From assembly GCA_951406725.2 (NCBI GenBank), contig OX597823.1:62558001-62622000 (forward strand): DNA of 64,000 bases, read 5' to 3'. This DNA is from Octopus vulgaris (Eukaryota). Of this stretch, positions 20,685 to 62,822 are shown piece after piece (position 1 is the first letter of the stretch; each line of letters starts with the position of its first letter). Both the position numbers and the translations under genes were made by a program. Below the pieces are notes generated by a model that saw only the letters and a list, made by a program, of their open reading frames with translations, was not told where the DNA came from and did no database searches.

Positions 20685-21948
20685 TTGGCTGCTGGGGGTG
20701 GAACCCGGCTACTGTCGACGAATAAAAGCGACTTTATGAAATACAGCCAAATGATGAAAATAACTGACAACGGTGTGAAAATTGAACCTCCGCAAAAGTT
20801 ATTACAAGAAGAAAAGCAAAAAACAATAATTTTCAAAACATATTGTCTACAAAAAAGAAAAAATTGAAAGAATGTCAGAAGAGAAAATAGAAAAGTGCTT
20901 AAAGCCAATATGGGGCGACGTAGTTTATCTGAGAAGAGGCAAAAAAATCGGAACGGTGGAAGTAAGGTTCACCAATAAAGAAATAGCACACAAGAACTCA
21001 GTTGAAACGCTGAAAACGAACGACGTGGAGCTCATCCCCTATTATACGGGGATGAGGACGTCCAGAATAAAAATTACAAGGGTCCCGCCAGAAGTCGACC
21101 CAATGTGGTTGTTGGCGGCAGTCCTAATCAAAGAGGTAGAAAAGATTACTCTCCTCCAGGCTACCGCTACGGAAAACCCACGCTGGAATGATCAAACAAT
21201 TAATCTTCTCATTCAAGCGGACCCTAAAATAATTCAAGCAATTCCCGAGTCAATTGAGGTAGGGGAGGAGAGCATCGTGGTGTTTGTTGAGGGCCGAAAA
21301 CCTCGATGTTTTTTATGTGGTCAATTAGGCCACATTCGAAGGAACTGCAAGGAAAATGAAGAAGAGGAAGAAGAGGAGAAAAAAGACAAAGAGGAAGAAG
21401 ATAAAGAAGAAACAGATGAGAAAAAAACAACAAACAAAAGAAAAATACAACCAGCAACCCAGCCGAAAGCGGCGACTACTACAGAACAACGACCAAAAAA
21501 GACTGCCAGAAGAGAAAAAGAAGAAAAAGGCATAATAGCCGTATACACTAAAGATACTGAGCTCATGAGAGACATTCAACTGATAAAGACTGTAAAAAAA
21601 ATAGATAACCTTTCAGAGGAATTTATCAATTACGACATATATGAAGTCTCAAATAAGACTTATAGAATTCTACAAAGCAAATACAGAAAGACTGTATCTT
21701 CATTAAGATTAGATTTTAACAAGTCGATATTTCATGGATTACCAGCCCCGATCCCGCGAGAAAAGGAAAAGGTGGAGATTCCCCCTCCACCTGATAATTC
21801 TGTGTCGGTGGTGAGACGGGATTTTGACAAATCTATTTCCCAAAACCGTCTACCTCCGACCCTGGATCAAAAAAAGGTGGAGGGTCCCCCTCCACCGGAC
21901 AATCCTGTTTATACAGGTAAGTCATGTCTATTCACATTGGTTGTTTAA
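20685..21948 (+). pseudogene. LINE ORF1 (gag-like, CCHC zinc knuckle), frameshifted near 20870
   Basis: CFLCGQLGHIRRNC knuckle, E/K-rich segment, homologous to ORF 47070-48242. The true start may lie further upstream (~20382) with a stop. Confidence 0.85.
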
Positions 21949-24900
21949 ATGTTCATGGCCTGTTGTCAAGCTGGAAGCAAGGACGCTTTCTAAATGACAT
22001 CAGGTCGAGAAATTTGGATGTAATTGTCGCAACGGAAACCCGGGTGAAGGGGCTAAGAGATCTGCTCCCCCTCCTGAACGGCTACGAGAAATACGTTTCT
22101 CCGAGTCGGGCGGGAGGGGGGTGGGGTGTGGGTCCTACTAAAAAGAAACCGGGTAGCCGAGAAAAAGTTGGTTTTTTCTGACCCAGAAGGCAGGCTGGTC
22201 GTTGTGGCAAGACAATCAGGCTGGTCGCTATTTACGCACCAAACATTATTGGCCCGCAAACTGACCTGGGAAAGTTCCTAGCCACGTCGCATTCACTAGT
22301 AGTGTTAGGAGACTCTAATACAATATGTGCAGCACACACAGATTGTGTTGGCTCAAGCTCGAACATGAACAGAAAATGTAACCCAGGCTTTCGGGATCTG
22401 CTAAGTCAATTTCAGCTAGCAGATCCATATAGGTTGGAGCACCCGAACACTCCACAGTGGACGTGGTCAAATATTGACGGGTCTACCAGAACATATCTAG
22501 ATAGGATTTTAATTAGAGAAAAAGATAAGTCCATAGTTGAGTGTCCACAGTTTTTTCTAGTCAGCTACAGTGACCACAAGATGGTTACCTGTAAACTGAC
22601 GGTAGATAAGTTGCATAGACAGGGATCTGGCAACTGGAAACTCAATACGTCCCTTTTGGCGATTGAGGAGTACAGAAAGCGGATCAAGATGTTAATACAG
22701 AGGGCATTAACAGGTACCATCATTAATAACAAATGGTGGTACGCCCTAAAAAGAGCCATCAAATATGAGTCTATTAGGTTTAGCATAAGTTTAGCTAAGA
22801 AGGGACGTAAAATAGGAGATGGTCTAGTTAAGGAACTAGAAGAAGCCTGGAGGACTGGTAATACAGACCAAGCGAGGGTGAAAAGACTGGAGTTAAACCA
22901 ACATCTTGAAGCCCACCACATGGGAAGTATTACCAGAGCTAAGTTACGTGCAATGGGAAGTGAAAGAATCAAAGCCGCTGGATGGGCCCGAGTGGTGGAA
23001 GCTCGGCAAGGAAATAGTTCCTCTATTCGGTCTTTGACGAATCAAAATGGTGTCTTGGTAAACGAACCCGAGAAAATGTGTGAGGTCTTTCGGGAGTACT
23101 TCGCCCAGCTGTTCGGGGGTGACGGCGGTCCTGGTGGTGGGAGAGCCCTCGAGGACTTTCTTACCGGGCTGCCGTGCCTCTCGGGGTCGGATGCGGAGTC
23201 TTGCGAAGGGCCAATCACACCTGAGGAGGTGATGGAGGCTTTGGCCGATTGTAAAGCGGGTAAGTCACCGGGACTTGATGGTCTTCCGTACGAGCTGTAT
23301 AAATGTATGCCAGACTTGTTCGGGCAACTACTGACTGACGTGTACGCGAACTGGAAACAGAATGGGTTTATCCCCAGATCTGTGCGCCGGGGAGTAGTGA
23401 CGTTGGTCAGAAAGGACCCGGACAAGGGGGACGTTCTAGAGAATTTCAGGCCCATCACTCTGTTAAACGCAGAAGTGAAGATTTTGGCCAAGGTTCTAGC
23501 AAAAAGGTTGGCGCGTGTCGCGAATGGTATAGTCGGGGAGGCACAGACATGTGCCATCCCAGGCAGAACCATTCAGGATACCCTCCATCTTATTCGCTAT
23601 ACCATAGAGAGGGTTGGTAATAAATCTGGCAAAGGTGGGGCATTGGTGCATTTGGACCAGTCTAAAGCTTTTGATAGGGTTGACCATCGATACCTAGCGA
23701 CTGTACTTGCGCGGTTTGGCCTGGGTCTTGGCTTCCTCAGGTGGTTTATCGCTTTGTACCACAACATTGACTCGATTGTTCGGGTGAACGGTTTCCTTTC
23801 GAAGCCGTTCTGTATCAAACGCTCGGTTCGTCAAGGATGTCCGCTTTCACCACTTTTGTATGTGATGGCTCTCGAGCCATTACTGCAAAGGTTGAGTGGC
23901 ATCCCGAGAGAACCAGGACTAGAGGAGTTTGTTATGGCTTTCGCGGATGATATCACTATCAGTGTAACCACAGTAGCACGCCTACGTGAAGTAGGTAAAA
24001 CTATTGAGGCTTACGAGAAGGTAGCAGGAGCAAAGATTAACCGGGAAAAGTCGGTCGGCTTGCAGCTCGGCACCTGGGTTGGCAAGTCGATGCCTTCAGA
24101 CAGCGTTGTTAGGCGCTGGACGGAGGGACCGGTTAAGTTGCTGGGAGTCTGGTTTGGACCAGGCCTCCAGATAGAGAAGAACTGGACGGAGGTATTGAGC
24201 AGGGTGGCTGCAGTAGTCAAGACCTGGTCTTGGCGGTGGCTATCTCTGAAAGGGAAGGCGGAGGTGGCCAATGTGTTTATCGCATCGGTCATTACCTACC
24301 GCCTGACTGTCGTGCCCTGTCCGGATTCGTGGTTGATCAGGTTGGAGAGACAGCTCTTTCGCATTTTGTGGAAGGGCAGGTCGCCACTTGTGAAACTCTC
24401 TGTCTGCTGTCAAAAGCCTTTAAAGGGAGGTTTAGGGATGCCTTGGTTAATGATGCGCAGACATGCGTTGAGGTTGAGACACCTCTGGATTCTCCTGGAT
24501 AGTGAACGGGTGTGGTCTCCGCTAGCCAGACAAATGTTCCCTGAGTTCAAGAGTTTTTGCGAACAGGAAGCCTGGTGTTCTCGTAGACCGAGGTCGAGTG
24601 AGTGGCATAAAGAGTGCCGTAAGGACCTCTTGCTTTTCCGGCGCTCGGGCAACGCCAGCGGTGGGGGTTCCACACGGATTTTATATAGTGGGTTGGTAGA
24701 GTCTGAATGCGACGATGACCTGGGGTTGACTCTAGGTTTCGGATTTATTCAACTGGACAGCTTGTTTCATCGTACATTCGGGTTGAGAACGTTGGACAAC
24801 TTCCAAAAGTCCTTAACCTGGCAATGTTACAGAAGTGCCTTTCCCGTTTGGGATAAGCTCGCAAGACATGGTAAACGTCAGTCGCCGACCTGTCCAAGAT

Positions 24901-25296
24901 GCGGGGGGGGGGGGCAGGGAAACCATCCCTCACGCTATTGTTCAGTGTCCGGAGATAACTGAAATGTGGGCTTATGCTGAACATCTGTTGTCCGGCGAAG
25001 TAAGAGTACGGCTGTCGACTGAGTCAATTATAAAAATTGACCCACCGGAAGTTCTAACGAACGAAGGTAAGAATTGTTTTCTCACGGTTGTAGCAATAGC
25101 AAAAGAGGCTGTATGGAAGACTAGGATAAAAGGAATTAAGACAGGCAACTTTATGTCTGGTCACAATTTACGATCTTTTTTCTCTTTTCATTTGAAAAGG
25201 AAACTGTGGCTGGAGAAGAGGTGTCTGTCGGAATGTACGTTCCAAAAGAGATGGAAGTATGTTGCACGAGTGTTGTGCGTGCAAGGAACCGTGTGA
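21924..25296 (+). pseudogene. LINE ORF2 (APE endonuclease, reverse transcriptase, C-terminal Zn motif) with frameshifts
   Basis: GCLNVHGL...ETR, YLDRIL, SDH, KSPGLDG, FRPITLLN, DQSKAFD, RQGCPLSP, AFADD, CPRC...ETIPHAIVQC. Breaks at ~22120-22300 and at the poly-G near 24905. Confidence 0.93.
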
Positions 25297-28049: not shown

Positions 28050-28435
28050 CTCCGGAAAATCTATTTCTGTAAAATGTTGGGAGTGGGTAAAATTTCCGAG
28101 GCTTCTGCCTCAGCCCATAGTTTTCTGGACCCAAAATGGGTTTAGTAGCATATTAGGAGATCACTGGAATTCATAAAAAAAAATTCCAATGATTCCGGAA
28201 TATTGGTGGGGGGGGGGGGGGTTCCGGTCCCCCCCCTTTTTTTCCGAAACAAAATAAGGGATTTGCAGCATATTAGGAGATCAGGGTACTTGATTCCACG
28301 GAAAAAAATTCGATTTTTTTTTCCTTAGTGAAAATCGTGCAGGTGAAAAGATCAGTAGGGGTGGGGGTGAAATTTCCGAGGCTTCCACTTCACCCCACTC
28401 CGTTATTCGGACCCCCAAAAAGGGTTTTGTAGCAT
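28050..28435 (+). repeat. dispersed/tandem repeat family also present at 33495-33975
   Basis: Shared tagcatattaggagatca...ttccaatgattccgg...gggtacttgattcca...gaaatttccgaggcttcc units. Confidence 0.75.
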
Positions 28436-28436
28436 A

Positions 28437-30574
28437 TGCCAGAAATATGTCCCAGAGCACAAGGCCAAAACAAATAGGAGCAAGATTCCAAGAGACAGGA
28501 AGATCCTCATGAGACGACAGACGAAGGTTGCAAATCGTCTCAACCAATATCCCAAAAGTAGCGAAACGTCCCGCCTAAAAACAACACTGATGGAGATCGT
28601 AAAAAGGCTGCAACAATCCTATGTGAAGGAGAAAGCAGACAAAGAAACCTGGATTATAAAAAACATTAAATCAAACCCAAAGGCCTTCTTTCATTACGCG
28701 AAAGAAACAGTCTCAGTGCACTACAAGATAGGACCCCTCCTCCAAAAGGATGGCTCCCTCACAGACAGTCCAACTAAGATCAGTGAGATGCTGAATGACC
28801 AGTTCAAAAGTGTCTTTACCACCCCGTTGGAACACAGACAAGTGAACGAACCAGTGGACTTCTTTGCCGCCTCACCTATAACCAGCGAGGTGGTTACAAT
28901 AGAATGTATTGACATTAGCGAAAAAGATGTCCTACTAGCCATAGATGAAGTGGACACAAACTCAGCTGCTGGTCCAGATAGTTTCCCAGCCATCCTCCTC
29001 AAAGCGTGTAAGCATGCCCTGGTAAAACCCCTCGAGATTCTCTTCCAGAGCTTTCTTGCGAATGGCAAACTGCTAAGCAAGCTGAAGGAGGGAATAATAT
29101 GCCCAATACATAAAGGGGGAAGTAGAGCAGATGCCAAAAACTATAGGCCTATCTCTCTGACTTCACACATCAGCAAAGTCATGGAACGGATAGTCAGAAA
29201 GAAACTAATCGCATTCCTTGAGGAAAATAACTTGCTGAGTGATACCCAGCATGGTTTTCGACCAGGTAGGAGCTGCCTGACCCAGCTCTTACAACATTAT
29301 GACTTGGTGTTGAGGCAGTTACTCAACAAATCAAATGTGGACGTAATCTACCTTGATTTTGCAAAAGCTTTTGACAAGGTGGATCATGGTATGACATGCC
29401 ACAAACTGCGTGACCTCGGCATAGCTGGAAAACTTGGAGTGTGGTTACATGACTTCCTGAAAGATAGGAGTCAGGCAGTAGTTGTTAATGGAGCCACCTC
29501 TATGAACACACAAATACTGAGCGGTGTTCTACAGGGCACTGTCTTGGGACCACTGCTTTTTATAGTGGCCCTCTCAGATATGCCCTCAAATGCCCGGATA
29601 GCCACTCTGGCCAGCTATGCAGACGATACGAAAGTCTCGCAGAAAATACAGAACCCCAGCGATGTTGCACACCCGCAGCAGGAGTTGGACTCAATCTACA
29701 GATGGGCTGAGGATAATAATATGCAGTTTAATGCTGAAAAATTCCAGGCCCTGCGCTGCCAGTATCCAAAACGGAATATTAAACTTACAGGATACACCGG
29801 TCCACAGGGAATTTCAATCCCAGAGCCTAAGTCTGTGAGGGACCTGGGTATCGACATGAGTGATGATACCTCTTTCCAAGTGCACATTACCAGGATGGCG
29901 ACAAAATGCAGACGACTGGCTGGGTGGATCCTAAGAACATTCAGAACCAGAGATAAGGAAACCATGATGGTCCTCTGGTGGACATTCGTCCTCTACCGCC
30001 TGGATTACTGCTCACAGCTATGGTCACCCATCAGTGTAGAATTAACAGCGGACCTTGAAGCAATCCAGAGAAGATTCACAAAGAAGATCGTCTCTTTGCA
30101 ACAGCTCAGCTACTGGGAAAGGTTGAAACAGCTAAGACTCTACTCCCTGGAGAGAAGACGGGAGAGGTATGCAGTAATATATGTCTGGAAGATCCTGGAA
30201 GGAATTGTGCCAAATTTTGGCATTATAAGCTACACCAATGCTAGAACGGGACGACACTGCATAGTACCAAAGATCCCAGGAATGCCATCACGCTTCAGGA
30301 CCAGCTTCTGCAACAGCCTGGGTTTCAAGGGCCCACAGCTTTTTAATATTCTCCCAAAGAGTCTGAGGAACTTGCACAAAGTAGATGTAGCGGTTTTTAA
30401 ATCAAAGCTGGACATCTTCCTGTCAAGAGTCCTAGATGAACCTACCTCACGGCAAGAGGTGCAAATGAGAGTAGCTATATCAAACTCCATTCTTCACCAA
30501 GTGCCACATATTAGACGAGGTTCTTCGTAATAACAGTGTAGCACAAAACGGCGGTGCATCAGCATGGCTGCAGC
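28437..30574 (+). mobile_element. 5'-truncated CR1/L2-group LINE with open 673-aa RT ORF (28509-30530)
   Basis: NPKAFF, NYRPISLTS, QHGFRPGRSC, YLDFAKAFDKV, QGTVLGPLLF, YADD, LDYCSQLWSP, LYSLERRRER. Short 3' tail ends at a TA tract. Confidence 0.93.
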
Positions 30575-30603: not shown

Positions 30604-31555
<952 letters not shown>

Positions 31556-32068
31556 ATTTTCGTCCTAAAAAACTTTGTATGGATTGAATGGTTACCTCTA
31601 TGGAAATATATACACGCACATTATACATACATGTGTGTATAGATGAATATATAAATACATTTAAATATCTATATACACTTTTGGGCGATCTTTCTTTTTC
31701 TTAGAGATAACTTTAGATCTTATATTCGTCATAAAAAACTTTGTATGGAGTGAAAGGTTACCTCTATGGAAATATATACACACACATTATACATACATCT
31801 GTGTATAGATGAATATATAAATACATTTAAATATCTATATACACTTTTGGGCGATCTTTCTTTTTCTTAGAGATAACTTTAGATCTTATTTTCGTCCTAA
31901 AAAACTTTGTATGGAGTGAATGGTTACCTCTATGGAAATATATACACACACGTTATACATACATGTGTGCATAGATGAATATATAAATACATTTAAATAT
32001 CTATATACACTTTTGGGCGATCTTTCTGCTACTTGGATATAGGTCTTATATTCGTCGTAAAAAACTTT
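31556..32068. repeat. ~165-bp tandem repeat, 3 copies plus partial
   Basis: ttcgtcctaaaaaactttgtatgg...ttttgggcgatctttc recurs at ~31559, 31725, 31890 and 32051. Confidence 0.92.
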
Positions 32069-44279: not shown

Positions 44280-44352
<73 letters not shown>

Positions 44353-44499
44353 AATAAATGGTGGGGTTGTGTTGACCGCACGTGGAGAAATGATAAGCAA
44401 AGAAATTGTAAAAAGGCAGAATGGTAAATTGAAAGAAAATTTTAATGAAAATGGGTGTATGGAAAAGTTTTTGAAAAATTGATAAAATATATATATATT

Positions 44500-44541
44500 A
44501 ATTCAAACCGGTTTTCGTCATAATGTGACTTTTCAAGAATT
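44500..44541 (-). ncRNA. type I minimal hammerhead variant, U3-A8 core, at the 3' end of the Penelope-like element
   Basis: aattc|TTGAAAA|gtca-catta-tgac|GAAA accggt T T|gaatt. Palindromic stem III AACCGGTT; sense to the RT. Confidence 0.8.
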
Positions 44542-45229
44542 GTAAAGAAAAGAAATTTTTTTAAATGTGAGGAGGGGGAAAAAAGAAAATTATATTGTTT
44601 TTTGCAGAAAAATAAAAATAAATATATACAAAAATTAAAAAATAGGTACTCCGATACATTATAAAGTCTTTGTGTATCTTGAGTTTAATGATTGTTCACG
44701 AAAAAATTACCTTGAAGTATTGAGATCCAATGGGATTAAATCCATGTGTTGTTTAATTTAATTAAGGGTGTCTCTTAAGTGCCTGGCAAAACAGGAAGTA
44801 GTGGTAGTCCAGTTCGTATGTTGTGAATAAGGGGAGACAACTCTATGGGTTTTGAGCTCTTCAATTTGTGTTTATCAATTTTTTGTAATAAAGGGTGTTA
44901 ATAAACCTTGAATTAAAAAATTATCATTTTAGCTTCATTTGCATTATCTTTTTTATATAATTGTTTGTTAACTTAACATTCAGATTTTAACACTTTATTT
45001 ATATTGTTTTCTGATTATATAAATTTGCATAAACCAATTTATAATTACATTTCAGATTGTTATGTCATATATAATAAAAATAATAATAATAATAACAACA
45101 GTAATAATAATGATATTTAAAGAATATAAGTTTTAGCTTAAGGTGATGACTGCATGGTATCCTTATATATTTGTGTTAGTCCATCCATGAAGAATGAGGT
45201 AGAAAAAAGAAGTATGATCAACGAGGAGT

Positions 45230-47115
45230 TTCCATATTAAGATGCGTTTTGAATTTTTCAATAAAGAGATTCTCCTTGTTAATTCTCTCCTGTGTGGTGA
45301 TTCCGTCTTTACATTGGTAGAAGGGGAATATGTAGAATTTGGGATTTTTGTCTTTAGCGCATGAGTCTATGTGGTCACTCAGTGGGATTTGCCGGTATTC
45401 CGGAGTTTTTTTTTTCTTTATGCACCGCTACTCTTTTACGTAACGGGAGGCTCGTTTGTCCAACATAATTATGTTGGCAACCAGCGCATGTGAGAACGTA
45501 GATAAGGTTCTCGGAGGAACAGGAGAAGTTGGTCTTGATTTTAAACTTCGTTCCTTGTTTGAAGATAAATTCAGAGCCTTCAAGTAGGAAGGGGCAGGTG
45601 CCACAGTTTGGGCGTGCACATTATTTAACTGCTGGGGTGGATGTGGTGTGTGAAGTTTGGCATTTGTCAAGAGTTTTTTTAAGATTTGTGTTGCCTTTTA
45701 CATTTGAGGATTTTGTGTGTATTTATAATGTTTTTCATTTTTGGGTCTGTTGACAGTAGACTGATGTTTTGTATGATTGTGGTGTATGCTTCGATATTTT
45801 TGGGGTTGTGGGTGGAAATGTATGGAAGTATTTTGGGGTTGTGTGTGTTGTTGGGTTGGGTGGTTTTCAGTGTAATGTTGTCTAGTTCTTTGGCGTGTTT
45901 TATTCCATGCTCTATAAGGGTGGAGGGATATTGGCGTTGTAATAGTGTTTTTTTGAGGTCTTGAAGGCGTATTTCTTGAGTTTTGGGATCCGAGATAATG
46001 GTGCATACCCTTTTAGCTAAGTTGAAAGGGATATTTGTCTTGGTGTGTTTTGGGTGGCATGAACTAAAGAGGAGGTATTGTTGTGAGTCTGTAGGTTTGT
46101 GGTAGATGTCTGTTATGATTTGGTTCTTAGGTGTTTTTATAATTAGGAGATCAAGGAAAGGAAGATGATGTTTGCTTAATTCCATAGTGAATTGGATGTT
46201 GGGATGTATGTTGTTCAGTATGGTTTTGAATTCCAGAAGTTTTTCATAAGGTTCTTTCCATATGATGAAACAATCATCCAAATACCTTTTCCAGTTTTCC
46301 ATTAGGTAGGTGTGGAAAACATGTCCAAATTTCTGGCGTGATATCTCATAGAGTGATAGTTCGAAGAAACCCATTATGAGGTTCGCAAGGACTGGTGCAG
46401 CCTTGGTACCCATCGCAATACCACATTTTTGACGGTAGTGTGTGTTGTCGAAGAGGAAATAATTGTTTGTCAGAATGAACTTGAGTGATTCCGTAATAAA
46501 GGTCTTGTGAATGCGGTCAGGGAATGTCTCTGGGTATTTTTCTAGCCAGAAATCAATTGCCTCAATACCATATTCATGCGGGATGTTGGTGTAGAGGTTG
46601 ATGACATCAAAGGATACCTGGAGCGCCTCCTCGTTAACTGTTTTCGGGAGGTGTTTGAGCATATCCAGATCATCCCTAATGAAACTTTTGATGGGGGTAA
46701 GGAAAGGTTTCAAAAGGATGTCTAGGAAATTACTCAGGCGGTGTGTTTCACAGGAGGTGCCAGCCACGATGGGCCTTAGTTTTAGGTCCTCCGGTGCTTT
46801 AATGTTGGTGTGGATGTCAGAGGAGAGTTTGCAGGCTTCGATGATGTATTTATTTTTATGGATTTTAGGAAGGCCATAAAAAAGTCTAGGCTTGCATTTG
46901 AAATTGGTGATATAATCCCTTTCTTTTTCTGTGAGTCCCTGACCGTGTTGGAGTATGAGTGTGGTGAGGTTTTTGATTGTTTTTTGTTGTTTATAGTTGT
47001 TAATAACCTCATAGAAAGTGTTGTTGTTTAGCATGGAAAGCACTAGGTATTTATAAAACTCCGTGTCCATTAGAACCACAGCGCTCCCTTTGTCGGCTTC
47101 TTTGATGGTAAGGTT
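45230..47115 (-). pseudogene. Penelope-like RT + GIY-YIG endonuclease, with a stop and frameshifts after the RT
   Basis: 485-aa ORF 45679-47136 plus downstream frames. Confidence 0.9.
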
Positions 47116-47186
47116 TTCAAAAACCTTTCCATACACCCATTTTCATTAAAATTTTCTTTCAATTTGGCATTCTGCCTTTTTACAAT

Positions 47187-48370
47187 CATCTTCATACTTG
47201 CTTCCTCCTTCTCTGACTCATTGTCACACAGCTTCTCAATTATTTTTCCACTTTCCTTTTCCGTCTCACTTTTATCATATTTCTTTCTCGTTACCTCTTT
47301 CTCTTCCACCTCTTTCTCTTCCACCTCTTCCTTCTTCTTTTTCTGATTAGCCGGTGGCGGGCCCACCTCTGCTCTCCTCCTTCTTTTTCTTTCCACTAGC
47401 GTGAATTCTTCTTCCGCTGTTTTCTCATTATTCTCGACTGTCACTGCCTGTTCGACTTTTTGTTTAGTCTCTCTCTGTTCTTTTCGTGGGTATCTCGCCT
47501 TCATGTGCCCCTTTTCGCCACATTCGTAGCACACAGGCGGTCTTCCCTCCACCTTCATTCTTAGTGTAAAACCGTCAGGTAACACTATCTCCTCTGTTAT
47601 TTTGTTCAGATCTTCCACTGTTGCCTGGATTGTTAGCTCCAACCCGTAGCCCCAGTAGTCCAACTTGTTTGTTCTGTTGGACTTCAATATTCTGGCCTCG
47701 TCTTCCATGTTGTACATAATGGCCGTCATTAGCCATGCCTCCTCCAGCTCAGGGGGCACCTGGCCCACCCGAACTCTCGCCACACGTTTGCCGCAATAGG
47801 ATGGCAGAAGAATCCATTCTTCTGAGCGGATTGCCTCCGTAGCATGCCTTATCGTTTCCTCTTCCGATGTGAAACGCACATCCACAGTTGCATATTTTCT
47901 GCCGCTTGTTCTAAAGATTATCACCTTTTCCATGCTTTCCAACACCTTCTCAATCTCCTCTACAGTTGCTATGTCGATTTTTCTTGTAGCGACCTTCATG
48001 GTCTTGTATGTCACTGTCTTCTTCATAACGCTGTTCATTAGTTCTTCGAGTGACGACAATTTTATCTTGTCGCCTTCTTTTTTCAGTAGCTTCTCGCTAG
48101 CTTTCATTTTCCTGGGCTCGACCTTTATTTCAAAGGTCTCTAATGCTTCTTTCTCTGCTTCTCTTCCAGTTGCGGCTGCATAGCTGTGGCCTCCCGCTGG
48201 CGCCTTCTCCATTTCCTCAATGGGAAAAATCAACTTCAACAAAAATTAACGATATAACACACGATAATCAACAGCAATATAACAACAGCAATAATCAACA
48301 ATAAATTCACGTTCTACTCACAATTATAACTCAACTTCAATTTTTTTTTACCAACACGAACTGCCAATCA
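47187..48370 (-). mobile_element. 5' UTR + ORF1 of a Tx1-type LINE, truncated at the Penelope-like element
   Basis: ORF from ATG 48212 is homologous to ORF1 at 20872 (ATVDVRF, VPPE, VEGRPPVCYECGEKGH). Last knuckle Cys is replaced by Tyr. TG-rich 5' UTR resembles 20230-20310. Confidence 0.85.
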
Positions 48371-49998: not shown

Positions 49999-51147
49999 AA
50001 ACCAGTCTGTCAATTCATTGTTGTGGTCAGCATCTTCTTTCTACTGGTTGCCTGGCACCAATATACTGCAAATAAACAATATACAGTAACAACCTCAAGC
50101 AAACATAATCAAAAGTTAATTGATGAAACACGTCAAAAACAGAAGAAAAATTTAAGTCTGATGGAACAGAAATTGCTTCAGTTAAACAACAAAACTAAAT
50201 ATGTTATTTTTCATTGTGTTGGTCGTAGTCTTTGTGGAGGTTGGGGAGATAGGCAGCATGGAATAATCTCTGTATATTTAATGGCACTGACCATGGGTCG
50301 GCGCTTTGGCATTATTATTTCAAGACCTTGCGATATTTCTAAATATCTTCAACCAAACAAAGTTAACTGGAAGATTGACTCAAAAGAGTTGCATGGCTTA
50401 AAAAGTCGTTACCTTAATTTGGTTGATGGGAATAAGTACATTTCCTCTTTACAATCAGCAGACTTAGAAACACTTTACCCTGAAGATGTCCTCTATGTGA
50501 GTACAAACAGAATCTATTTTTATGCCTTGAAAAAGAATGCTCGATACAAAGAACAATTACTTTGGGCATCACAAAAGTCATATGGAAATATATTTGCTAA
50601 AGTGATGAATTTATTGTTTCGCTTCAGTGATCTTCTTCAGGCAAAATTTGACAAATTCTTTGAAGTCAATATTCCCAAAACAAATATGCATCTGGTGTGT
50701 GCTCAGATTCGAATTGGAAAAAACCCCAGTGTGCCAGGAGATTCCCAAAGGAATTCAATGTCAGATGTTCAGAATGTGTGGAACTTCTTAAGTAAATACA
50801 ATAACACCAGCAAGTACAAAATATTTGTGACCACAGACTCAAAGGAGGTGCAGGATATAGCTTCAAAAAAATTTTCTTCTCAATTCATGTATACCTCTGG
50901 GGAAATAATTCATGTGGATAGGCTCCGTAAAGGTGTGAAAGATACATGTGATGCTCTAAGGAAGATTCTTATGGACCAATATATTTTGACTAAATGTGAT
51001 ACATTGTTAGTGAGCAGAAGTGGTTTTGGTGAAAATGCTTTGCTAATGAGAGAAAAAGAAAATAACATTTTTCATTTTAAAAATGGAAATGTAACACGTA
51101 TCAACATAGAAAAATTTTTTCCTGGCTGGGAAAAAACTTGGTTGTGA
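49999..51147 (+). CDS. terminal coding exon of a type II membrane glycosyltransferase, fucosyltransferase superfamily (alpha1,2/alpha1,6/O-FucT/NodZ-like)
   Basis: Polypyrimidine tract + ttctag acceptor, phase 0. TM segment FIVVVSIFFLLVAW; motifs CGGWGDR, VCAQIRIG (motif I), IFVTTDS (motif II), HVD, DQYILTKCDTLLVSRSGFG (motif III). Uninterrupted 382 codons to TGA. Confidence 0.85.
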   Translation, partial: KPVCQFIVVVSIFFLLVAWHQYTANKQYTVTTSSKHNQKLIDETRQKQKKNLSLMEQKLLQLNNKTKYVIFHCVGRSLCGGWGDRQHGIISVYLMALTMGRRFGIIISRPCDISKYLQPNKVNWKIDSKELHGLKSRYLNLVDGNKYISSLQSADLETLYPEDVLYVSTNRIYFYALKKNARYKEQLLWASQKSYGNIFAKVMNLLFRFSDLLQAKFDKFFEVNIPKTNMHLVCAQIRIGKNPSVPGDSQRNSMSDVQNVWNFLSKYNNTSKYKIFVTTDSKEVQDIASKKFSSQFMYTSGEIIHVDRLRKGVKDTCDALRKILMDQYILTKCDTLLVSRSGFGENALLMREKENNIFHFKNGNVTRINIEKFFPGWEKTWL

Positions 51148-53132: not shown

Positions 53133-53239
53133 GAAATTCTGGGTGAGTACTTGATAATTGTAAGCACCTGTATATACCGTTTGGTGGTGTAGGTGGTGGA
53201 GTAAATTAATCAAAATAAAAACATGATGCCAAGGATTCA

Positions 53240-53317
53240 GCGGTACATATGTTTCGGGCCTTTATTAGACGGATTTATAACAATGCATAATGTATGTCTG
53301 TGGCCTTCTTTAGCCGC
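53240..53317 (-). ncRNA. hammerhead copy with G5A core mutation (likely inactive)
   Basis: gcgg|CTAAAGA|aggcc..41 nt..ggccc|GAAAC atat GTA|ccgc. Confidence 0.7.
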
Positions 53318-56300
53318 GCACAACAACTTCCACAAGGACATGTATTACATCAAAAATTCTTGGTTGGGGATGCAAATCCTCCCATTCGCGTACGACATAA
53401 TGCGGCAACAGCATAAAAATGAAGCGTCCATCTCGTTCTTCTCTGAATGTAGAATGAGGAAATTTGGATGTTGAAGTAATGTAAATAAATTAATAAATAA
53501 ATATATACATATATAAATATATAAATGTAGACAGACGTGTAGGAACCTGGTAATAAGAGTGAATAGAGATAAAGATGGAGGGGCGAGAATTCAGGACGAA
53601 GGATAAAAAATATATTAAAAAATATATAAAAAGTGTAAGTATATAAAAAAAATATAAAAATGTAGAGTGTAAAGATATAAAGAGATATAAAAAATATAAA
53701 AGAATATAAATGAATATAAAGGTATAAAGTTATAAAAATAAAAATAGAAATAAAAATAATAAAAAATGTAAAAGATTATAAGGATAAGGGATATATAGTA
53801 GTTACGGACCAAACATGGTGGTCAGGAAAATGACAAATTCTGGTTGTAGAAGTCTGGGGTGTCGTAAATCAACAGGAGCGTCTGGGGACTTAGTGTATTG
53901 TAAATCAGAGATGTTGAGCAGCTTATCTGGTTCTTCGTATTAAGTGGTCATCTTGTACATACGTACCCGCATGGATGCATACACCCATATACACGCGCAC
54001 ATATACGCACGCATACCCAGCTACAAGCATATAAGCATACATACGTACTCACGTGTAAACATATACAGATACACATATACACATACACACGCACACATGC
54101 GCACATATATATACACACAACAGAATATGCATATATATACACGGACAATATACATGTACATATATATATACACACACGCACACATACGCATATACATATA
54201 CATATACACATATGCATACATGTATACATATACATATATACACATATACATATACACACATATACTCGCACCCATACCCGCACACGCACATATATATATG
54301 TGTGCATACATGCACACCCACGTGTGCATACATACACGCATACACACATACACACGGACCCACGCGCATGTATCCACACGCACACACACACACATCTGTG
54401 TGTCTATATGTGCGTGTGCGCATACCCTTACATACACATACACAGATGCGCACACATACAGATATAGATATAAGATATTAAAAGATGTATAACAAATGTA
54501 TATAAGAAATCTACAAACGCATGTAAAGAAACGGACCCACGAACTCACGTCTACACGCACACGCACACACATCTGTGTGTCTATACGTGCGTGTACACAT
54601 ACACTTACGTACACACACACAGACACACGCACATATAGGTATAGCTATAAGATATTAAAAGATGCATAAAAATATGTGTAAACATATGTATATAAGAAAT
54701 CTACGAAAGCATGTAAAAAAAATTATTAAAGAAGTATAACGGGGGTGCGCATATCTAGACACAGATATTTACTCATACATACGTATACACATGTATACAT
54801 ATACATACGTACCCGGACACACGTATAATCATAAAGCGGATACATAGATAAGTAAATAAGGAAAAAGCTAAAAATAGACATATATAGAGATATAAAGTGA
54901 TAAAATAGGGGTAAAAATAGGAGTAAGAATGAGGGTAAGAATAAGAATTAGAAATAAAAATAAGAAATAAAATATAAAAATTAGAAATAAAATATAAAAA
55001 TCATAAAAACTATAAAAATTAAAATAGAGAATGAAAATAAAAATAAGAATAAAGGTAAAGCAAAATAAAATAGGATAAAATAAAATATAAATATAATCGG
55101 GTAAAGCTTAACATGAGATGAGGGTAAAAATAAAAGGTGGTTGAAAGTGTAAAGTTAAAGGTGTGTGCTAAATGTGACCACGTAGGGGCGGGCGGGGGGA
55201 ACTGAAAATTGGAAGGGTGGGAAGCGGAGTTTGGTGGTGTACGCTCAACATCAGAGTTAGAAATGGGAAAAAGTATAGATATAGGGAAACAAAAAATCTA
55301 GATAGGAAGAATGTAGGTGTAGGAGAAGAAATATATAGGGAAAAAAAATATATGGGAGACAAAATGTGTATATATAGGAAAAAGTAGGAAAATATATATA
55401 TAGGAAAACGGGATGCGCTAGAGCCGACAGGTTGCACTGGGTGGGAGGAACTTGCATGGGGGAGTTGGTATAATAGTCTAAGCTTTGTAGTATTTGAAAG
55501 TATTAATAAGCTTGTGTATACAGGATGGTTTGAACTCTGACCTTTTGTTAATAAGATTGTGTTTCTCCTTGAATTTCAAGATATTCAGGAGTTCTACACA
55601 ACATAGCTGGCATCCTGCTCTATTGTTTAAATAAGGTGCAGCTGATCCGATGATGGACCATCTGAGTTTGAAATCTATGCTTTTGTCTTTTAATTCCCAA
55701 TTTTTTTTAGAAAGGGAGGTGCTGTTAGCTTTATGCCTATGTTTCAGCGATGACCGGTGGTTGTAGTATCTAGATTTCCAGGAGGTCGAGCAACCTATGT
55801 AACAAAAGGTCAGAGTTCAAACCATCCTGTATACACAAGCTTATTAATACTTTCAAATACTACAAAGCTTAGACTATTATACCAACTCCCCCATGCAAGT
55901 TCCTCCCACCCAGTGCAACCTGTCGGCTCTAGCGCATCCCGTTTTCCTATATATATATTTTCCTACTTTTTCCTATATATACACATTTTGTCTCCCATAT
56001 ATTTTTTTTCCCTATATATTTCTTCTCCTACACCTACATTCTTCCTATCTAGATTTTTTGTTTCCCTATATCTATACCTTTTCCCATTTCTAACTCTGAT
56101 GTTGAGCGCACACCACCAAACCCCGCTTCCCACCCTTCCAATTTTCAGTTCCCCCCGCCCGCCCCTACGTGGTCACATTTAGCACACACCTTTAACTTTA
56201 CACTTTCAACCACCTTTTATTTTTACCCTCATCTCATGTTAAGCTTTATCCGATTATATTTATATTTTATTTTATCCTATTTTATTTTGCTTTACCTTTA

Positions 56301-57778
56301 TTCTTATTTTTATTTTCATTCTATATTTTAATTTTTATAGTTTTTATGATTTTTATATTTTATTTCTAATTTTTATATTTTATTTCTTATTTTTATTTCT
56401 AATTCTTATTCTTACCCTCATTCTTACTCCTATTTTTACCCCTATTTTATCACTTTATATCTCTATATATGTCTATTTTTAGCTTTTTCCTTATTTACTT
56501 ATCTATGTATCCGCTTTATGATTATACGTGTGTCCGGGTACGTATGTATATGTATACATGTGTATACGTATGTATGAGTAAATATCTGTGTCTAGATATG
56601 CGCACCCCCGTTATACTTCTTTAATAATTTTTTTTACATGCTTTCGTAGATTTCTTATATACATATGTTTACACATATTTTTATGCATCTTTTAATATCT
56701 TATAGCTATACCTATATGTGCGTGTGTCTGTGTGTGTGTGTACGTAAGTGTATGTGTACACGCACGTATAGACACACAGATGTGTGTGCGTGTGCGTGTA
56801 GACGTGAGTACGTGGGTCCGTTTCTTTACATGCGTTTGTAGATTTCTTATATACATTTGTTATACATCTTTTAATATCTTATATCTATACCTGTATGTGT
56901 GGGCATCTGTGTATATGTATGTAAGGGTATGCGCACACGCACGTATAGACACACAGATACGTGTGTGTGTGAGTGTGGATACATGCGCGTGGGTCCGTGT
57001 GTATGTGTGTATGCGTGTATGTATGCACACGTGGGTATGCATGTATGCACACATATATATATGTGCGTGTGCGGGTATGGGTGCGAGTATATGTGTGTAT
57101 ATGTATATGTGTATATATGTATATGTATACATGTATGCATATGTGTATATGTATATGTATATGCGTATGTGTGCGTGTGTGTATATATATATGTACATGT
57201 ATATTGTCCGTGTATATATATGCATATTCTGTTGTGTGTATATATATGTGCGCATGTGTGCGTGTGTATGTGTATATGTGTATCTGTATATGTTTACACG
57301 TGAGTACGTATGTATGCTTATATGCTTGTAGCTGGGTATGCGTGCGTATATGTGCGCGTGTATATGGGTGTATGCATCCATGCGGGTACGTATGTACAAG
57401 ATGACCACTTAATACGAAGAACCAGATAAGCTGCTCAACATCTCTGATTTACAATACACTAAGTCCCCAGACGCTCCTGTTGATTTACGACACCCCAGAC
57501 TTCTACAACCAGAATTTGTCATTTTCCTGACCACCATGTTTGGTCCGTAACTACTATATATCCGCAATAATAATTCTCTAAACGAGATATAGACAGTAAC
57601 TGCTCCATAACATAAGGGACATTAGCCATTTGAATGTGGCTAGGGACAGGGCAGGGCGGAGGGGGTGTTACTGATGCATTTAGCCCCAGGTGATCATCAA
57701 CGTCACCAGATAGGCTGACACCATCACGGTGTCCTCTATCCTGCAAAGGGAGATCATTCCCCGAAGAAGCGGATGCCA

Positions 57779-57823
57779 CATACGGACCCAGGTTTCAAGG
57801 TGTTTGCCTATCATCAACGCATG
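57779..57823 (-). ncRNA. type I hammerhead variant (UUGAUGA core) in the 357-bp unit
   Basis: Exact reverse complement of 58417-58461. Confidence 0.7.
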
Positions 57824-58416
57824 GCAGGCACCGCTCCTCGACGAACAACTCCCCGAGCAGGATATTTATATAGAGATTTTCACGTAAATACATTTACTGA
57901 TTTCGAAAATCTGTTCGACAGCAATAATAATTCTCTAAACGAGATATAGATAGTAACTGCTCCATAACATAAGGGACATGAGCCATTTGAATGTGGCTAG
58001 GGACAGGGCAGGGCGGTGGGGGTGTTACTGATGCATTTAGCCCCAGGCGATCATCAACGTCACCAGATAGGCTGACACCATCACGTGAAACCTGGGTCCG
58101 TATGTGGCATCCGCTTCTTCGGGGAATGATCTCCCTTTGCAGGATAGAGGACACCGTGATGGTGTCAGCCTATCTGGTGACGTTGATGATCGCCTGGGGC
58201 TAAATGCATCAGTAACACCCCCACCGCCCTGCCCTGTCCCTAGCCACATTCAAATGGCTCATGTCCCTTATGTTATGGAGCAGTTACTGTCTATATCTCG
58301 TTTAGAGAATTATCATTGCTGTCGAACAGATTTTCGAAATCAGTAAATGTATTTACGTGAAAATCTCTATATAAATATCCTGCTCGGGGAGTTGTTCGTC
58401 GAGGAGCGGTGCCTGC

Positions 58417-58461
58417 CATGCGTTGATGATAGGCAAACACCTTGAAACCTGGGTCCGTATG
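58417..58461 (+). ncRNA. type I hammerhead variant (UUGAUGA core, GUC site) in the 357-bp unit
   Basis: catgcg|TTGATGA|tagg-caaaca-cctt|GAAAC ctgg GTC|cgtatg; TATATAAA ~45 bp upstream (58368-58375). Confidence 0.72.
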
Positions 58462-59092
58462 TGGCATCCGCTTCTTCGGGGAATGATCTCCCTTTGCAGG
58501 ATAGAGGACACCGTGATGGTGTCAGCCTATCTGGTGACGTTGATGATCACCTGGGGCTAAATGCATCAGTAACACCCCCTCCGCCCTGCCCTGTCCCTAG
58601 CCACATTCAAATGGCTAATGTCCCTTATGTTACTATATATCCCTTATCCTTATATTCTTTTACATTTTTATTATTTTTTTTTATTTTTATTTCTATTTTT
58701 ATTTTTATAACTTTATACCTTTATATTCATTTATATTCTTTTATATTTTTTATATCTCTTTATATCTTTACACTCTACATTTTTATATTTTTTTATATAT
58801 TTTTTATCCTTCGTCCTGAATTCTCGCCCCTCCATCTTTATCTCTATTCACTCTTATTACCAGGTTCCTTCACGTCTGTCTACATTTATATATTTATATA
58901 TGTATATATTTATTTATTAATTTATTTACATTACTTCAACATCCAAATTTCCTCATTCTACATTGAGAGAAGAACGAGTTGGACGCTTCATTTTTATGCT
59001 GTTGCCGCATTATGTCGTACGCGAATGGGAGGATTTGCATCCCCAACCAAGAATTTTTGATGTAATACATGTCCTTGTGGAAGTTGTTGTGC

Positions 59093-59170
59093 GCGGCTGA
59101 AGAATGCCACAGACATACATTATGCATTGTTATAAATCCGTCTAATAAAGGCCCGAAACATATGTACCGC
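59093..59170 (+). ncRNA. type I hammerhead with long stem-II insertion
   Basis: gcgg|CTGAAGA|atgcc..41 nt..ggccc|GAAAC atat GTA|ccgc. Confidence 0.78.
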
Positions 59171-59207
59171 TGAATCCTTGGCATCATGTTTTTTATTTTG
59201 ATTAATT

Positions 59208-59293
<86 letters not shown>

Positions 59294-59435: not shown

Positions 59436-60237
59436 AAGGAATGAAGCTAGCATGATCCGCTGGATGTGTAATGTCAGTGTGCACGCATGACAGAGTGCAA
59501 GCACCCTGAGAGAAATGCTTGACATAAGAAGCATCTGATGTGGTGTGCAAGAGCGACGCTTGCGATGGTATGGTCATGTACTGCGGATGGATGAGGAGAG
59601 ATGTGTGAAGAAGTGCCACTCCCAAACAGTTGAAGGTATCAGGGGGAGAGGTCGACCCAGGAAGACATGGGATGAGGTAGTCAAACATGACCTCAGAGCA
59701 TTGGGCCTCACTGAGGCAATGGCGAAGGACCGAGATTTCTGGAGATATGCTATGACTGCAAAGACCCGGGCTGCTTCCTGCACCAGTTCCGCATAGCCCC
59801 TGCCCATTCAAAGTACCTTGGATTTCAGAACAACCCGCTGTGCTTGAGGAGACCTGTTGAGTCAAGTACATGAGCATCGAAATAAATATCAATGGAAATA
59901 GTAGTTGTGATACCTGTGCCGGTGGCACATAAAAAGCACCATTCGGACGGGGCCGATGCCAGCACTGTCTTGGCTGGCTTCCGTGCCGGTGGCACGTTAA
60001 AAGCACCAACTGATCATGGCCGATGCCGGACCCCCTGGCACCTGTGCAGGTGGCATGTAAAAAGCACCCACTACACTCGCGGAATGGTTGGCGTTAGGAA
60101 GGGCATCCAGCTGTAGAAACTCTGCCAGATCAGACTGGAGCCTGGTGCAGCCCCTGGCTTTCCAGACCCCGGTCGAACCATCCAGCCCGTGCTAGCGCGG
60201 AAAACGGACGTTAAACGATGATGATGATGATGATGAT
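59436..60237 (+). mobile_element. RTE-clade LINE 3' end (ORF C-terminus + UTR + (GAT)n)
   Basis: [12 protein letters not shown]...GRGRPRKTW; tail gatgatgat. Confidence 0.9.
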
Positions 60238-60879: not shown

Positions 60880-60965
60880 TTGGTACGATCGTTTCGTACT
60901 ACATCATTTTATTAAATGTTGTAAGTATTACAACAGATTTAAAATGCTGAGTACTCATCAGCCAA
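60880..60965 (-). ncRNA. type I hammerhead, canonical core, with 49-nt structured stem-II extension
   Basis: ttgg|CTGATGA|gtact..49 nt..agtac|GAAAC gatc GTA|ccaa. Confidence 0.9.

Positions 60966-62073: not shown

Positions 62074-62822
<749 letters not shown>

Follow-up and report, generated by a model that had tools for sequence, protein, structure and literature searches.

A stretch of 64,000 nucleotides of Octopus vulgaris DNA (the window) holds a short hammerhead-bearing repeat in two orientations, which raises the question of what this repeat is and how it came to lie where it does. From the sequence-only reading it could have been either a retrozyme unit or a reiterated pLTR of a Penelope-like element (PLE). 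In our analysis these options merge: the repeat is a hammerhead unit of retrozyme size, and its insertion bears the footprint of a PLE. We consider it likely, with a probability of roughly 0.7, that the insertion was made by the enzyme of an autonomous PLE copying an uncut two-unit transcript of a non-coding hammerhead unit. The unit is thus likely a small parasite of PLEs.

The insertion covers 1,069 bp and is flanked on both sides by a target-site duplication, whose size is given as 10-12 bp because a TA may be part of the element (Table 1). The other arm of the host element has a single copy of the target sequence at the same position, and the empty-site sequence past 57563 is also present in contigs from sequencing runs X3 (n=6), X6 (n=2) and X14 (n=5). 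The 357-bp period recognized earlier holds, as 57564-57728 recurs at 57921-58085 (98%) and 58086-58275 recurs at 58443-58632 (98%), both at a spacing of 357. The unit had also been described as mirrored, with the inversion junction inside the ribozyme. The inversion is confirmed, but the two arms are offset and are inexact mirrors, the left arm reaching 44 nt further 3'; the junction lies within the ribozyme in the plus-strand arm (unit position 345) but outside it in the minus-strand arm (unit position 57). Numbering of the unit starts at the predicted cut, so that the monomer between two GUC cut sites is positions 1-357.

Table 1. Features of the insertion and of its host element (positions in the window)
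Feature	Position	Strand	Remarks
Insertion	57564..58632		1,069 bp
Left target-site duplication	57552..57563	+	TACTATATATCC; 10-12 bp; first 2 nt ambiguous on right side
Right target-site duplication	58631..58642	+	
Empty site in the host's other arm	53789..53800	-	one target-sequence copy
Inverted 5'-truncated arm	57564..58085	-	unit a 57-357, then unit b 1-221 (read 58085 to 57564)
Direct arm	58086..58632	+	last 13 nt of upstream unit x (half hammerhead), whole unit a, b1-177
Monomer (unit a)	58099..58455	+	357 nt between two GUC cut sites; 47.9% GC
Tail	57564..57607	-	44 nt, unit b 178-221; at this insertion end alone
Head-to-head junction 58085|58086	58081..58088		inside 8-bp palindrome TCACGTGA
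Type I hammerhead, direct arm	58417..58461	+	complete; core UUGAUGA (U3.G8), U.U at stem II base
Type I hammerhead, inverted arm	57779..57823	-	complete; predicted cut between 57785 and 57784
TATA-like box, direct arm	58368..58375	+	TATATAAA; putative promoter
TATA-like box, inverted arm	57865..57872	-	putative promoter
Host left arm	53133..55799	-	5'-truncated Hydra-like PLE, long 3' region, next to (TA)n
Host tail	53133..53199		67 nt, AC-rich, one end only
Host right (inverted) arm	55800..59211	+	broken by insertion, (TA)n at end
Host C-terminal GIY-YIG endonuclease remnant	55478..55816	-	YIG...NH...CxxC..E...N.RSE..C.H

Each arm is about 1.5 units long. The arms share 478 nt with a and b in the same phase, neither arm containing the other, and 57608-58085 differs from 58155-58632 at 2 of 478 bases (unit positions 191 and 216, the only arm-private differences). 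Unit a is distinguished from unit b by three positions (94, 125 and 162), and these differences are identical in both arms, giving the haplotype G94/A125/C162 followed by A94/T125/A162; the alleles at these positions are rare across the family in contigs from four runs. The tail, 44-46 nt in length, is found at the left end only. For the 8-bp palindrome at the junction a coincidence of only 3 nt was required. At its 3' end the insertion shows a 2-nt TA microhomology, and it has no poly(A) or repeat tail. This is the one insertion of the unit seen whole (n=1).

The sequence around the insertion is a 6-kb inverted structure that terminates a PLE ORF, which places the unit inside one PLE; the window contains a further PLE remnant. 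The GIY-YIG remnant of the host has 38% and 44% identity to two hits among 44 candidates, and both of these hits have RT motifs, a CxC linker, and CxxC and CxH beside conserved E and N. Taken with the (TA)n target, these features fit the Hydra clade as section 11 of PMC8557442 describes it. The 3' region of the host (53133-59211) is about 2.3 kb long and CA- and A-rich, and the hammerhead-like motif found near 59098-59162 (+) has a decayed counterpart in the left arm. The host arms show 24 mismatches in 2,325 columns, about three of which lie beyond the true end. We rejected divergence as a sign that the insert arms are younger than the host arms, since 2/478 versus 24/2,325 is not significant (Fisher p 0.29); insertion of the unit into the host, the order of events that we infer, rests on the duplication and the empty site, not on arm divergence.

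The insertion contains no RT or endonuclease ORF, and no RT ORF lies downstream of the unit at this locus. Within the unit there are stops in all six frames, the two overlapping stop-to-stop frames have no Pfam match, and tblastn of two PLE proteins against the unit gave a best E of 2.1; we accordingly discarded the idea that the unit retains coding sequence. The insertion is not an autonomous PLE, as it has no PLE RT / GIY-YIG ORF. Alternatively, the arms might represent only the ends, pLTR plus tail, of an autonomous PLE that lost its ORF through 5' truncation; a TATA box, a hammerhead, a tail and an inverted head are indeed pLTR features. This we regard as the least probable origin, with very little chance of being correct: unit position 221 continues straight into 222-357 and back to the ribozyme, which at a period of 357 nt leaves no room for an ORF, the same tandem continuation is found in X3 and X6, and there is no sign of coding. 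Comparison of the unit with the four PLE-type ends in the window revealed no homology. Scores of 28, 29 and 28 were reached by 9, 7 and 12 of 100 shuffles, respectively, and a score of 39 with the fourth end was rejected as an AT-rich artefact, being an alignment to (TA)n.

Both the hammerhead reported in the unit and the box just upstream of it are present. The motif is of type I, and there is one complete copy per arm; the upstream site on the plus strand lacks the 5' half. It is laid out as a 6-bp stem I, the UUGAUGA core, a 3-bp stem II closed by U.U, GAAA, and ACCUGGGU before C17. The latter sequence makes up a self-complementary stem III, and stem I has a predicted extension covering 58388-58491. 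Cleavage of the plus strand is predicted after 58455. The TATA-like box ends 48 nt before the core and may act as a promoter. A strict hammerhead descriptor gave two matches in the real window versus none in 100 block-wise dinucleotide-shuffled windows. An Rfam search in E-value mode gave no match to a hammerhead family (75 low-complexity hits in one run and 0 in another) and, given this, the hammerhead call rests on the custom descriptor and the family variants.

Several variants of other copies fit the ribozyme fold, including a stem I G.U that becomes A-U, changes at N7 and in loop II, and a stem III loop variant that creates the perfect palindrome ACCUAGGU. At paired positions of the extended stem I, two of the six listed variants keep the pair and four break it, and the unconstrained fold (-46.3 kcal/mol) is better than the forced active fold (-40.2 kcal/mol). 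As a monomer, stem III has 2 bp; between two copies an 8-bp self-pairing is predicted (-9.8 kcal/mol), and a dimer design via stem III has been described for animal type I motifs (PMC4209133). The U3.G8 pair looks like a subfamily trait because, at a listing threshold of 5 in 100, no variant is listed at core positions 3 and 8 in any of the four runs. A second subfamily, which has C3 and whose upstream stem differs, is seen in loose ends from X2 (2 contigs) and X6 (1). We predict the hammerhead to be weak, with activity lowered by the U3.G8 core, because a type III hammerhead subjected to a mutational scan had low activity when CUGA was changed in any way but the C-G swap (PMC9901934). A rate for the C3U core change alone was not found in the literature searched. 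The U10.1.U11.1 pair is tolerated in natural ribozymes (PMC3088659; axolotl HHR_Amex2, PMC7229834).

The traits of non-LTR retrozymes are present: a head-to-tail unit within 150-450 bp, one type I hammerhead per unit, no protein coding, a target-site duplication of >4 bp, GC <50% (47.9%) and many copies. Self-comparison of the window revealed no LTR-type layout. By size, motif, duplication, GC and copy number the element, as read from its sequence, is a non-LTR retrozyme with predicted cleavage and predicted circles. The animal non-LTR retrozymes reported by Cervera and de la Pena (2020; PMC7229834) include mussel repeats of 350-390 bp and axolotl Rtz_353 / HHR_Amex2, and the unit is like those described there in its size, one type I hammerhead per unit, GC <50%, lack of an ORF, duplication of >4 bp and self-paired circle (predicted here). 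It further resembles HHR_Amex2, which cleaves better as a dimer (PMC7229834), in the 2-bp helix III with a tetraloop and the U.U at the base of helix II. Unlike the retrozymes presented in that article, it has U3.G8 rather than C3-G8, a head-to-head arrangement, a one-ended tail and a single whole ribozyme per arm; the word 'inverted' is absent from the article's main text.

The units themselves indicate what was copied. Because the a/b differences at 94, 125 and 162 are identical in both arms, the template likely held two different units, and the simplest reading is that copying of one two-unit RNA started at each of the two target ends and ran through an uncleaved ribozyme site. The in-phase differences could alternatively stem from conversion between the arms. 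From the sequence, a monomeric circle would be excluded as the template unless the arms were later homogenised, and a dimeric circle could serve. An insertion templated by a circle, in which RT rolls around a circular RNA, would accordingly need a 714-nt two-unit circle or arms homogenised after insertion, and we judge it unlikely. The circle model is a published one, with circular dimers as a minor in vitro product in the accounts consulted (PMC7229834, PMC7761336). The monomer is predicted to fold well as a circle (-115.1 kcal/mol, z -3.7; 0 of 100 shuffles as good), a 360-nt closed cycle is present in X6, and a dimeric circle could yield the order a57-b221, gap, b345-a-b177. Also on the side of the circle is the predicted stem I pairing about 10 nt upstream of the start site expected from TATA-to-start spacing, which suits a circle or a multimer. 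A monomeric circle, on the other hand, should give identical units, and the usual error of RT is much too low for three in-phase differences within 177 nt. The circle model alone predicts neither the inverted head nor the one-ended tail, and it would still need internal priming by a PLE-type enzyme, so that it differs from copying of an uncut two-unit transcript mainly in the shape of the template.

Consistent with copying by a PLE enzyme, the footprint follows the PLE pattern of a partial tandem, an adjacent inverted 5'-truncated copy, a one-ended tail and an AT-rich target. In PLEs as characterized in PMC8557442, the partial tandem and the adjacent inverted 5'-truncated copy occur with a tail of 30-40 bp at one end, and the tail of 44-46 nt here is slightly longer. 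Pen2a_Av has this layout with a 9-bp duplication, a 31-bp tail and a TATA box, and PLEs in the same report have duplications of 8-10 bp, with junction palindromes in copies related to Pen2a_Av (PMC3846280); the junction palindrome lends weak support as a PLE sign. Thus the insertion is like EN+ PLEs (Pen2a_Av, PMC3846280; Poseidon PAc, PMC11167929; PMC8557442) in the partial tandem, the inverted 5'-truncated copy and the one-ended tail, and also in the ~10-bp duplication, TATA-like box, junction palindrome, AT-rich target and insertion into another PLE, and unlike them in having no RT/endonuclease ORF and a period of 357 nt instead of ~3 kb. As reported for a purified PLE protein in vitro (PMC11167929), the enzyme cuts AT-rich DNA and extends both strands, RT starts at two internal RNA sites with the gap between them forming the tail, and uncut RNA is used, ribozyme cleavage not being needed.

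Two further explanations bear on the same footprint. A LINE could have retroposed a multimeric transcript by twin priming, as in L1-type 5' inversion. The 10-12-bp duplication, the 5' inversion and the 2-nt TA microhomology are compatible with this, and the window has two other RT ORFs (RVT_1, LINE-like by inspection). We nevertheless find it improbable. Twin priming draws its two parts from separate, non-overlapping segments of a single RNA and ends the direct part at that RNA's 3' tail; here the arms share 478 nt, in phase for a/b, and neither poly(A) nor a repeat tail is present. More improbable still is an ordinary satellite fragment around which a fold-back at the DNA level or a chimeric assembly created the inverted structure. 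Against an artificial origin are the clean duplication and the empty site, the differing end points of the arms, the two private differences, and the 44 nt found in the left arm only. In its favour, no independent junction-spanning contig was found among those listed, and inverted structures of this sort are described as hard for assemblers (PMC8557442).

Under the preferred reading, copying of an uncut two-unit transcript by a PLE enzyme, the insertion would have begun when the TATA-like box drove transcription of a source locus containing units x-a-b or more, with the weakened ribozyme leaving much of the RNA uncut. An RT/GIY-YIG protein of a PLE would bind this RNA, probably in the subfamily-shared segment (unit 69-256), and cut the AT-rich target with a stagger of 10-12 nt. 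Each target end would then prime RT at its own internal position on the RNA, b177 or b221, which lie 44 nt apart; the two cDNAs would cross the a|b ribozyme site, terminate at x345 and a57, respectively, and be linked head-to-head.

To place the unit in a wider set of sequences, we turned to sequencing runs: 20 of the 24 listed runs, representing 10 studies and 4 related organisms, contain part of the stretch, and none of them is recorded as RNA. Unit-family contigs were taken from four of the 24 runs and aligned to one rotated unit with flank, yielding 913 (X2), 741 (X3), 33 (X6) and 437 (X14). At the family level, these contigs bear out that the unit is multi-copy rather than confined to a single locus (all four runs) and that it occurs head-to-tail elsewhere, as joints going back one unit are found in contigs of X3 and X6. 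Record 27 of X6 is 390 nt long with a period of 360 and a terminal overlap of 30 nt. By k-mer logic a terminal overlap of a contig marks a closed assembly cycle, and we read the record as such a cycle of a 360-nt sister unit. Since a tandem array gives the same cycle and the RNA nature of X6 is a guess, the record is evidence of head-to-tail arrangement and not of a circle. The sister unit, possibly a dominant or expressed subfamily, matches unit 69-256; its remainder, where the TATA and ribozyme half is expected, could not be aligned at 80% likeness. Over the ribozyme, summed contig depth is 8-59-fold below that of unit 108-123, and the ribozyme half is thinly covered in X6. Depth falls 3.9-6.4-fold past unit 221 in X2, X3 and X14 and 1.5-fold in X6, with no consistent step at unit 177 (ratios 1.0-2.4). 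These figures are hints only, because contig depth is a poor measure that cannot rank parts of the unit, nor can contigs show ends. None of the 32 pieces listed bridges the left junction, and pattern scans of metagenome contigs and viral contigs gave 0 loci.

In the copy analyzed here, the TATA-like box and the single ribozyme of each arm face outwards. With a single whole, outward-facing ribozyme per arm, a transcript from the copy's own promoter would be cut once and release no 357-nt monomer. Read-through RNA of the whole insert is predicted to form one hairpin that is 95% paired; cleavage of the upstream half-site by the downstream ribozyme half in such an RNA was set aside, as the insert folds as one hairpin. 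Modelled in this way, the copy is likely a dead end for circles. By the definition of an 'active' retrozyme in Li et al. (two consecutive whole hammerheads) this copy is not active, a statement that leaves the family unjudged.

The unit is a new family within animal non-LTR retrozymes, represented by a well-preserved insertion at one locus, and it adds a likely cephalopod family to the retrozymes. The literature searched, which covers few subscription papers, contains no description of an octopus or cephalopod ribozyme repeat matching the unit family; Repbase may hold such repeats. How animal retrozymes move has been stated to be open: the published model has circular RNA templates, and the link to PLEs consists of co-occurrence and pLTR homology. 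Such a link was suggested in PMC7229834, and a PLE derivation of retrozymes has already been argued by Li, Clavereau and Pollet (bioRxiv 10.64898/2026.07.22.740005), whose conclusion, that retrozyme units are parasites or derivatives of PLEs, is the same as ours. The text of that preprint relies on co-occurrence and pLTR homology, for the most part in vertebrates, and describes the mechanism of mobilisation as open. Unlike theirs, our evidence is the insertion footprint, and pLTR homology was not found with the four PLE-type ends of the window. The words 'tail', 'octopus' and 'mollus' are absent from the preprint text, and inverted heads or tails are used as evidence in the main text of neither PMC7229834 nor the preprint (a search covering the main texts). 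The locus therefore offers a new type of evidence, an insertion footprint combined with a built-in marker, the three in-phase a/b differences, against a monomeric circle as template.

The closest published parallel among non-autonomous PLEs is found in Chlamys elements such as MRC1, which according to PMC8557442 are non-coding, pLTR-forming, often head-to-tail and moved by PLEs. The Chlamys elements of that account differ from the unit in being green-algal and in their 3' similarity to an autonomous family, a similarity not found here, and the Naiad/Chlamys clade is described there as being without canonical hammerheads. Compared with the minimal PLE hammerheads presented in PMC4209133, the motif here has a long stem I and a short stem II. 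More tentatively, and with the balance of probability somewhat against it, retrozymes of this family may spread as uncut multimeric transcripts and not as circles, the handicapped core (U3.G8 plus U.U) being kept so that sufficient template stays uncut, with circles as a by-product and the ribozyme/promoter halves as interchangeable modules. On this same doubtful extension, a Penelope enzyme would prime internally from both target ends and recognise a conserved segment of ~190 nt.

The window holds other mobile elements as well. A Neptune-like PLE remnant at ~44300-47142 (-) has an open RT frame at 45679-47142 and a frameshifted C-terminal GIY-YIG; among named matches, a protein from Octopus bimaculoides has the highest identity (82%, covering 52% of the query). 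A hammerhead-like motif with a U3-A8 core lies at its 3' end at 44536 (-), and a LINE-ORF1-like frame (47070-48245) abuts its 5' end. Minimal hammerhead-like motifs with a palindromic stem III at 60961 (-) and 27745 (-), each near (TA)n, are likely the 3' ends of other PLE families. Remnants of non-LTR retrotransposons with RVT_1 are located at 20830-24962 (+), with an upstream zinc-knuckle ORF, and at 28371-30530 (+). An open frame at 30785-31336 (-) matches the Pif1 helicase 2B domain (E 2.6e-15), possibly as a Helitron fragment, and lies beside a 166-bp tandem repeat (31555-32068). A 382-aa open frame at 49999-51147 (+) has a weak, below-cutoff Pfam match to fucosyltransferase (FUT8_N_cat). 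Finally, 59882-60138 and 62309-62627 are two copies of a dispersed repeat with internal subrepeats of 61-67 bp, which we take to resemble octopus SINEs.
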